Under the pieces are notes generated by a model. It saw only the letters and a program-made list of their open reading frames with translations, searched no databases and was not told the origin of the DNA. From Escherichia coli (GTDB lineage: Bacteria; Pseudomonadota; Gammaproteobacteria; Enterobacterales; Enterobacteriaceae), in NCBI RefSeq assembly GCF_003334355.1, contig NZ_QOWP01000065.1: DNA of 6,805 nt; one strand, given 5' to 3'. This document shows positions 4,647 through 5,089 of the stretch, piece by piece. How positions within the stretch are numbered: the stretch's first letter is position 1; every line of letters begins with the position of its first letter. The position numbers were made by a program, and so were the translations under genes.

Positions 4647-5030
4647 ATTTTTCTCCGTTATTAATCAACAAACAGAGTAATCCACCCGAAAATTAACACT
4701 TCGATAAGCAACGAAATATAGAAAGGTCATGCTGCTGTTTTATGTTGTATATCACACTTCTTTAAATTGCTCGGCCTGCGCTTATCATGTTCTCCTTCTC
4801 TTATAATTTTGTTTATTATTTATACTTTTTTATTTTTTGCTATCACCGAAAATAGTGCGGATCCCGCATGGTATTTAGGTTTACCCATCATTAAATACCA
4901 TTGTTGTTATTTTAATCTTTTTAATATTTCATGATTAAGATCACACTAAAATTATGACCCTATTAACTAAAAGTTATGGATACCCTAATAAAACTCATTG
5001 TTAAAGATTAGTTAACCAAAGTAACTTCAT

Positions 5031-5062
5031 TTTTCACTATTGTTAAATTGTTATAGTGAAAA
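5031..5062. promoter_or_regulatory. Candidate operator/promoter palindrome upstream of the gltS-like gene: TTTTCACTAT-N12-ATAGTGAAAA
   Basis: Perfect 10-bp inverted repeat with a 12-bp spacer, ending 28 bp upstream of the start codon; contains a TATAGT -10-like hexamer. Function is inferred. Confidence 0.35.
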
Positions 5063-5089
5063 TTCTGGTAAACTAATAGAGGTAAAAAA

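Follow-up and report, generated by a model that had tools for sequence, protein, structure and literature searches.

Two chromosomal control regions lying back to back probably account for the long AT-rich gap upstream of gltS in Tn10

Why does the transposon Tn10 carry 443 bp of AT-rich DNA between two divergently transcribed sets of accessory genes? We addressed this question in a stretch of 6,805 nucleotides from Escherichia coli (hereafter the window; assembly GCF_003334355.1, contig NZ_QOWP01000065.1), which corresponds to the core of Tn10 outside its insertion sequences (IS): bases 4300-5400 match plasmid R100 and hundreds of plasmids at 100%. To the left of the gap lies the jem operon, which encodes an ABM monooxygenase, an ACT-like protein and the winged helix-turn-helix (wHTH) regulator JemC; to the right lies gltS (jemA), the gene of a sodium/glutamate symporter. 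The original prediction had described the gap as unusually long and AT-rich, and both points hold. The ABM start codon (4644-4646, minus strand) and the gltS ATG at 5090 delimit 443 bp, and neither open reading frame (ORF) can be extended into them. Tn10's two other divergent gaps, which measure 81 bp (tetA-tetR) and 87 bp (tetC-tetD) in the R100 annotation, are about five times shorter. GC makes up 28.7% of the gap and 38.3% of the Tn10 core. Neither the PLSDB plasmid records nor the RefSeq E. coli records annotate any feature in the gap. Although few transposons have been studied or used as much as Tn10, which is widespread among resistance plasmids, its cargo other than the tet genes has stayed unannotated and unexplained together with the gap. 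In the literature searched, which did not extend to two Tn10 sequence papers from 2000, we found no account of this gap, of jem gene function or of a Providencia origin of Tn10. Our reading, to which we assign a probability of roughly 0.6, is that the gap is native regulatory DNA captured with the cargo from a Providencia-like chromosome, with the jem control region and the gltS upstream region placed back to back. The gap would then be long because it holds two control regions, one of which was already long in the donor.

Comparison with other Tn10 copies, suggested in the original prediction, was ineffective as a check. All 442 plasmid matches to the gap were at least 99% identical to it, and at least 80% of the segment 4600-6700 was found in 357 of 5,426 complete E. 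coli genomes. Since copies this uniform are uninformative about conservation, diverged relatives were sought through proteins instead. A GltS protein scan with one genome per species retrieved chromosomal relatives in Providencia (88-96% amino acid identity) and Xenorhabdus (86-90%), along with more distant ones in Acinetobacter and in one Neisseriaceae genome. The closest relative was the chromosome of Providencia 'vermicola' P8538 (CP048796.1; locus L084 in our set, 6042-15894), with which the whole Tn10 core (155-6647) is collinear at about 81% nucleotide identity and which has no IS10 there. The shared order is tetD-tetC, tetA-tetR, jemC-ACT-ABM, the 443-bp gap, gltS and the start of a LysR-family gene. 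Amino acid identities between the Tn10 and P8538 products are 92% for TetD, 78% for TetC, 83% for TetA, 92% for TetR, 84% for JemC, 84% for ACT, 82% for ABM and 96% for GltS. The sole break in collinearity lies between tetA and tetC, where P8538 has 3.6 kb (L084 11204-14798) and Tn10 has 196 unrelated bases (1257-1452). Nor is the length of the gap peculiar to Tn10: it is 443 bp in P8538 and 320 bp in Xenorhabdus innexi, and in other Providencia 640-850 bp separate gltS from the next upstream gene.

Among 5.8 billion proteins, no relative of the Tn10 ABM protein outside Tn10 was closer than that of P8538, so the true donor seems to be unsampled. The exact P8538 ABM protein was indexed in 85 contig-collection blocks, mostly from contigs longer than 0.2 Mb. 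Three apparently closer relatives (P0006, P0017 and P0019) were set aside as a metagenomic Tn10 copy, IS26-truncated Tn10 remnants and an error-rich Tn10-like contig. P8538 is not a true P. vermicola, and the name P. pseudovermicola has been proposed for misassigned strains that cluster with the new isolates of the proposing study (PMC12016157). In P. stuartii, tet(B) has been reported as intrinsic in 92% of genomes (PMC12889124).

Third-codon positions, compared between Tn10 and P8538, served as the neutral yardstick and gave identities of 57% for gltS, 67% for ACT and 72% for ABM. The proximal 127 bp of the gap (4963-5089) were 94.5% identical to P8538, and the distal 316 bp (4647-4962) were 66% identical overall. 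Within the distal part, conserved islands appeared at 4647-4720, at about 4740-4775 and at about 4800-4840. On the other hand, 4770-4800 and most of 4840-4960 showed only 40-60% identity, which is at or below the neutral level of 57-72%. The alignments do contain the conserved blocks whose absence the original prediction had named as evidence against it: three short blocks stood far above neutral conservation, and two of the three co-occur with a specific regulator gene across genera. This comparative evidence supports regulator binding sites, the one option in which the original prediction was right; it had proposed a small RNA and curved DNA as well.

The strongest conservation lies next to gltS. 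From 4963 to the gltS ATG, Tn10 could be aligned with nine Providencia and Xenorhabdus chromosomes. Over these ten sequences from two genera, mean pairwise identity was 80% for the whole block 4963-5089, compared with 50% at gltS third-codon positions. Two segments at its upstream end, which we call Box 1 and Box 2 (Table 1), reached 96% and 99% respectively, and the sub-blocks of the rest (5006-5089) ranged from 66% to 85%. Each box holds an AAC-N5-GTT dyad, the two centres (4970 and 4997) being 27 bp apart, and the Box 1 dyad is expected 0.13 times per shuffled window. Box 2 also includes a -35-like TTGTTA (4998-5003), which is followed after 18 bp by the -10-like TAACTT, whose first, second and sixth positions are invariant. 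We read this block as a LysR-dependent gltS promoter plus leader. The promoter would be of a weak sigma-70 type (TTGTTA, 18 bp, TAACTT). In promoters activated by LysR-type transcriptional regulators (LTTRs), the recognition site, a T-N11-A dyad, lies near -65 and the activation site near -35. If transcription starts near 5035, the two boxes fall at -65 (Box 1) and -38 (Box 2), the classical recognition and activation geometry, so that Box 1 is a candidate LysR-type recognition site and Box 2 a candidate activation site. A promoter consensus scan of the gap region returned one sigma-70-like site as compared with 4.1 in shuffles, a shortage that fits weak, factor-dependent promoters. Two other candidates in this block were rejected. 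An extended -10 in the invariant TGGTAAACT (5066-5074) would imply a gltS start inside the Shine-Dalgarno sequence. A tetO-like TCACTAT...ATAGTGA (5034-5059) has its halves swapped, and its arms are not conserved beyond a 5-bp core.

The boxes travel with a particular regulator gene. In every chromosome, gltS is followed by a LysR-family gene and a D-amino-acid dehydrogenase gene, and also by a Rid-family gene except in X. innexi and on a truncated contig of Acinetobacter portensis; the full gltS-LysR-dehydrogenase-Rid synteny is common to nine Providencia and Xenorhabdus genomes apart from the Rid gene missing in X. innexi. All 12 loci that have the LysR gene, among them those of Acinetobacter and of the Neisseriaceae genome, also carry both boxes, their spacing unchanged, about 97 nt before the dehydrogenase gene. 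The Box 1 palindrome occurs in all 12 loci with LysR and dehydrogenase genes, as against 4 of the 68 loci with only a distant gltS. In Acinetobacter, where LysR and gltS are divergent, the LysR start adjoins a Box 1-type dyad (ATAAC-CAATA-GTTAT). Most likely, the cognate regulator of both boxes is the product of the LysR gene found after gltS on the chromosome. This activator would act there on Box 1 and Box 2 at gltS, and on the identical pair that precedes the dehydrogenase and Rid-family genes. The LTTR gene next to the target, present in 12 of the 12 chromosomal relatives, was not kept in Tn10. What is left is a stump with 98% amino acid identity to the N-terminus of the P8538 LysR, annotated by PGAP as a partial pseudogene, and chromosomal homology ends at 6647. 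As the regulator is reduced to 41 codons, Tn10 retains the cis element without a complete LTTR system. IS10 has taken away the remainder of this gene, leaving the Tn10 gltS promoter probably orphaned and at basal activity unless a host factor substitutes.

How far does the native gltS DNA extend to the left? A 28-nt distal island was found 305-340 nt upstream of gltS in 8 of 8 Providencia loci by alignment (A5), local alignments and blastn. It occurs once per locus, is absent from Xenorhabdus, and is present also in Providencia that carry a thiamine-diphosphate enzyme gene in place of the ABM and tet genes. Homology with Providencia lacking the ABM and tet genes ends at about 4720-4737. The island and this end of homology together assign about 355 bp (about 4736-5089) to the native upstream region of gltS and the other 80 bp or so to the ABM operon. 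Position 4963, a sharp blastn boundary, had been considered as the junction between the tet/jem genes and gltS; it was dropped once the island was found in Providencia without that segment, and it marks a boundary of constraint rather than of homology. The island itself is a candidate transcription-factor site or weak distal promoter. Its bases 4741-4756 match 8 of the 10 positions of the CRP motif TGTGA-N6-TCACA with an invariant right half (the window holds four such 8/10 sites), and TTTATG and TTAAAT, 17 bp apart (4739-4767), form a weak -35/-10-like layout. Between species, its distance from Box 1 varies from 178 to 211 bp.

The remaining left end of the gap would drive the ABM-ACT-JemC operon. 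We aligned six ABM upstream regions: those of Tn10, P8538, a Providencia PROV202-type locus, two Proteus loci and X. innexi. A 22-bp imperfect dyad is the only block common to them apart from the Shine-Dalgarno sequence. On the ABM strand, the halves of the dyad are TATTTCGTTGC and TTATCGAAGTG in Tn10, and CATTTCGATAG and TTATCGAAGTG in the PROV202-type locus, where 20 of the 22 positions are symmetric. The dyad lies 52-74 nt upstream of the ABM homologues in the PROV202-type locus, the two Proteus loci and X. innexi. A strict pattern for it was expected 0.00 times in a shuffled window and matched nowhere else in 0.96 Mb of fetched DNA; the P8538 copy, with one base changed in the right arm (CGAAGCG), fails this pattern. 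Every locus with the dyad also has a JemC homologue, with identities of 48-84%. JemC (228 aa) contains an ArsR/SmtB winged helix at residues 12-100, with a score of 54.9 bits just below the curated metalloregulator cutoff of 55, and its C-terminal part of about 125 aa had no family match. Most likely, the dyad is the operator of this ArsR/SmtB-type regulator, which is encoded by the third gene of the same operon. The hexamer TAnnCT (4679-4674) is the best -10 candidate for the operon; with it, the dyad spans about -30 to -51 with its centre near -41, which would be the -35 position of a short-leader promoter. JemC would thus control its own operon through the dyad, by repression or by activation.

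A junction that is real, at about 4720-4737, and some 200 bp without constraint (4766-4962) also fit a different explanation, in which most of the gap is functionless debris from the joining of tet/jem to gltS and the conserved blocks merely reflect recent common descent. We consider this highly improbable. Recent descent cannot produce box identities of 94-99% beside third-codon positions at 50-57%. Moreover, the boxes recur at a second promoter and in Acinetobacter, and the ABM dyad is found in Proteus and Xenorhabdus within flanking DNA that cannot be aligned. Promoters, start sites, protein-site pairings and the direction of regulation are in every case predictions built on these patterns. 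Taken together, the captured donor DNA would be a mosaic in which an ArsR-type operator region is followed by a distal site, filler and an LTTR-type promoter left in Tn10 without its regulator.

Several features that the original prediction had picked out fall into the filler. The T-runs are there, at 4826-4831 and 4833-4838. The GC hairpin exists, but not at 4848-4860 where it had been placed: TGCGG-ATC-CCGCA occupies 4856-4868 and its GGATCC site 4859-4864. It is not an element, since P8538 has TGTCAAAACCGCAT at this position; the 10-bp inverted repeat is likewise missing there, and both are drift. A direct repeat (4738-4758 and 4927-4947) and other repeats were taken as chance, the second copy not being conserved in P8538. 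A pseudogene or mobile-element remnant in the distal part was also rejected, as tblastx and short blastn searches against 90 loci gave only P8538-type and low-complexity matches. The claim that ORFs reach at most 25 codons is correct for ATG starts only; a 43-codon GTG ORF (4565-4696) enters the gap from the ABM gene, and a 55-codon TTG ORF occupies 4767-4934. Does the latter hide a small protein gene? Mechanical ORFs do exist here, with a 111-codon one over the same stretch of P8538. However, the 55-codon ORF lacks an ATG, sits in the least conserved stretch (40-60% identity) and has its frame broken by 1-nt indels against P8538. Moreover, tblastx gave similar scores in several frames on both strands, a non-coding signature, and no record or contig that we saw calls it a gene. 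A hidden protein gene thus has next to no probability, and the gap holds no conserved ORF.

Another possibility is that the gap acts through its composition, as an AT-rich and possibly curved H-NS target that silences the Tn10 accessory genes in enterobacterial hosts of 50% GC. The contrast in base composition is large, with 28.7% GC in the gap and 23.6% in the gltS-proximal block against 38% in the core and about 50% in E. coli and Salmonella. The gap contains several T-runs, the spacer remains AT-rich in P8538 (27.8% GC) despite sequence drift, and an effect of this kind is compatible with captured control regions. Nevertheless, AT-richness is already a property of the donor genomes, which makes the composition inherited and not selected in Tn10, and the sharply conserved boxes point to sequence-specific recognition. 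Curvature found no support either in an AA/TT periodogram (10-11.25 bp), a simple test rather than a full curvature model: there was no 10-11 bp periodicity, the power of the spacer lay below the shuffle mean, and that of the whole gap was matched by 22% of shuffles. We regard the compositional explanation as unlikely.

An RNA element in the gap could take two forms, the small RNA of the original prediction or a long structured gltS leader or riboswitch, with transcription of the leader starting near 4775. The -35/-10-like layout of the distal island, whose last hexamer T is invariant in eight species, and the perfect TATAAT of the spacer could serve as promoters for it. A long nested hairpin is possible in Tn10 at 5007-5077, and lax Rfam scans gave generic hairpin matches there. 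Most of the evidence runs the other way. The covariance-model search, which the original prediction had proposed, covered the entire window and matched no Rfam family at E<=1, and in the gap the lax scan found just eukaryotic microRNA models, at 14-25 bits against gathering scores of 49-80. Conserved structure could be tested across ten sequences for the proximal block only. There, RNAalifold gave a covariation term of -0.02 with zero compensatory pairs, and neither the inverted repeat at 5031-5062 nor an outer stem (5007-5018 with 5066-5077) showed covariation. Candidate stems paired like column shuffles (61% vs 60% and 68% vs 68%), and the fold z-score of -1.2 was no better than that of shuffles. 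A leader of this kind would consist mainly of the roughly 200 bp of spacer, whose identity lies at or below the neutral level and whose length varies by 33 bp. The sole terminator-like site (4868-4856, minus strand) is weak and missing in P8538. An RNA element in either form is therefore very unlikely.

Both control regions resemble known systems. Like LTTR promoters, the predicted gltS promoter combines a T-N11-A dyad with a related one, placed 27 bp downstream and overlapping a weak -35, and a second promoter of the cluster has this pair as well. He et al. are said to have described in 2014 a dguR-dguA-dguB set composed of an LTTR, an FAD D-amino-acid dehydrogenase and a Rid-family protein. 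The chromosomal gltS cluster encodes the same three kinds of protein, its dehydrogenase scoring above the cutoff of NF001933, and by gene content dguR-dguABC of P. aeruginosa is the nearest described system. There, the LTTR DguR controls the dguA promoter in D-glutamate catabolism (PMC10926688, citing He et al. 2014). The two loci differ in that the transporter is a GltS symporter here and a periplasmic binding protein in dgu. In addition, the LTTR gene is co-directional with gltS and downstream of it in Morganellaceae, being divergent only in Acinetobacter, and in Tn10 only the cis element survives beside the 41-codon stump.

The operators of ArsR/SmtB proteins (SmtB, CzrA, CmtR) are imperfect 12-2-12 inverted repeats located at the promoter of the repressor's own operon. 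The 22-bp dyad similarly lies right upstream of an operon encoding an ArsR/SmtB-type winged-helix protein, and dyad and JemC are co-conserved across three genera. By contrast, JemC is about twice the usual size, with an unmatched C-terminal half; the dyad has an 11+11 geometry and lies upstream of the predicted -10 rather than over it; and the co-transcribed genes encode an ABM monooxygenase and an ACT-like protein instead of a metal efflux system. Within Tn10 itself, the tetR-tetA control region is also a divergent gap controlled by the product of an adjacent gene; it has homologues in P8538 and was inherited as part of the same segment of chromosome. It differs in its length and in its operators, as the ABM-gltS gap has no tetO-type palindromes.

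Several observations weigh against back-to-back control regions of this kind. On the jem side, the dyad is most degenerate in Tn10 and P8538, where only 5-6 of its 11 positions are symmetric, and the JemC homologue of X. innexi lies about 4 kb from its dyad. ArsR-family operators usually overlap the -10 or the start and do not lie upstream of a -35, so that the logic could be that of a repressor or of an activator. On the gltS side, the position of the LysR gene in Morganellaceae is not the textbook divergent one, and another factor could bind the boxes. Weak hexamers underlie the promoter calls, and matches of this kind turn up often in AT-rich DNA. Finally, this explanation assigns no role to the distal island or to the AT-rich stretch at about 4800-4840, which is 80-83% conserved but in P8538 only.

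A more far-reaching version would have Tn10 gltS behind a stranded LysR-type promoter, deprived of its activator on capture of the segment by IS10, the gap as a record that the whole core, tet(B) included, was lifted from an unsampled Providencia-like chromosome, and the donor gltS in a regulon for D-amino-acid (possibly D-glutamate) uptake and catabolism. We place the odds of this somewhat below even. If it is true, the most widely used tetracycline transposon would carry jemA silently, and supplying one regulator could switch the gene on; tet(B) would also be accompanied by an uncharacterised ligand-responsive unit, the JemC/ABM/ACT module beside tetR. The analysis provides candidate sites for two regulators and predicts that jemA/gltS is without its native activator in Tn10. 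Tying the whole core, control DNA included, to a Providencia-type locus helps to trace the origin of tet(B), and it helps to judge how the accessory genes are expressed in new hosts. As the proposed mechanisms are of textbook types, the result is useful rather than surprising.

Table 1. Features of the gap and of the surrounding Tn10 core; positions refer to the window, and promoter elements and binding sites are predicted.
Feature	Position	Strand	Remarks
gap between ABM and gltS	4647-5089		
jem control region (ABM-ACT-wHTH operon)	4647-4725	-	aligns only with P8538, 80-97% in 30-bp windows
ABM Shine-Dalgarno GGAGA	4652-4656	-	
-10-like TACTCT	4674-4679	-	TAnnCT at fixed distance from the dyad in six lineages
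22-bp imperfect dyad CACTTCGATAAGCAACGAAATA	4697-4718		51-72 nt upstream of the ABM ATG
distal island TTTTATGT-N6-TCACAyTTCTT	4738-4765	+	TCACA at 4752-4756 invariant
unconstrained AT-rich spacer	4766-4962		about 200 bp
perfect TATAAT in spacer	4802-4807	+	
10-bp perfect inverted repeat in spacer	4868-4877 / 4892-4901		
Box 1 TTAACTAAAAGTTAT	4963-4977	+	TTAAC-TAAAA-GTTAT, T-N11-A dyad
Box 2 AAAACTCATTGTTAAA	4990-5005	+	AAAAC-TCATT-GTTAA(A), AAC-N5-GTT dyad
-10-like TAACTT	5022-5027	+	
predicted gltS start	near 5035	+	leader of about 55 nt
inverted repeat in leader	5031-5040 / 5053-5062		
invariant TCTGGTAAACT	5064-5074	+	
gltS Shine-Dalgarno GAGG	5079-5082	+	
tetD	155-571	-	R100 annotation and ORF list
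tetC		+	R100 annotation and ORF list
tetA(B)		-	R100 annotation and ORF list
tetR	2649-3275	+	R100 annotation and ORF list
jem operon, served by the left 80 bp or so of the gap	3253-4646	-	
jemC, winged-helix regulator	3253-3939	-	R100 annotation and ORF list
ACT-like protein	3947-4333	-	R100 annotation and ORF list
ABM monooxygenase	4326-4646	-	R100 annotation and ORF list
gltS (jemA), served by the right-hand 355 bp of the gap	5090-6295	+	TIGR00210 gltS, 516 bits (cutoff 311)
first 41 codons of LysR-family gene	6526-6647	+	cut by IS10 inside end
IS10	from about 6648		

Some further observations concern the genes around the gap. The coding ends of jemC and tetR converge with a 23-bp overlap (3253-3275), and P8538 has the identical overlap (L084 9374-9396). 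The ABM and ACT-like ORFs share 8 bp (4326-4333), which suggests translational coupling. The old Tn10 nomenclature names only jemB and jemC where the current annotation has three genes, and one source adds a hypothetical protein (PMC7767384). In P8538, the 3.6 kb between tetA and tetC hold an HxlR fragment, a nitroreductase gene and the gene of a thiamine-diphosphate enzyme; in Providencia without the tet and jem genes, the latter is the upstream neighbour of gltS. Many Tn10 remnants on plasmids stop within the ABM gene at about 4570 (hits H15-H19), and in loci L087 and L088 an IS26-family transposase gene adjoins a truncated ABM gene. On one Salmonella plasmid (H60), the match to the gap stops at about 4732, near the ancient junction.

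Others concern gltS and its putative regulon. About 70 bp before the LysR fragment (6458-6525) are also conserved. Between gltS and LysR, Acinetobacter tianfuensis has 396 bp (L012 4605-5000) and A. portensis about 250 bp (L011), and in Acinetobacter just about 30 nt before the gltS ATG can be aligned with Tn10. Xenorhabdus mauleonii alone carries about eight units of (TTTTTG)n just upstream of the promoter block (L005, about 4760-4800). Additional [AT]TAAC-N5-GTTA[TA] palindromes occur 1-1.5 kb past the Rid gene in two Providencia loci (L007 10272 and L014 10304), and X. innexi has an extra palindrome upstream of the ABM side (L010 3651). These palindromes may mark further members of the LysR regulon of gltS and the dehydrogenase gene.

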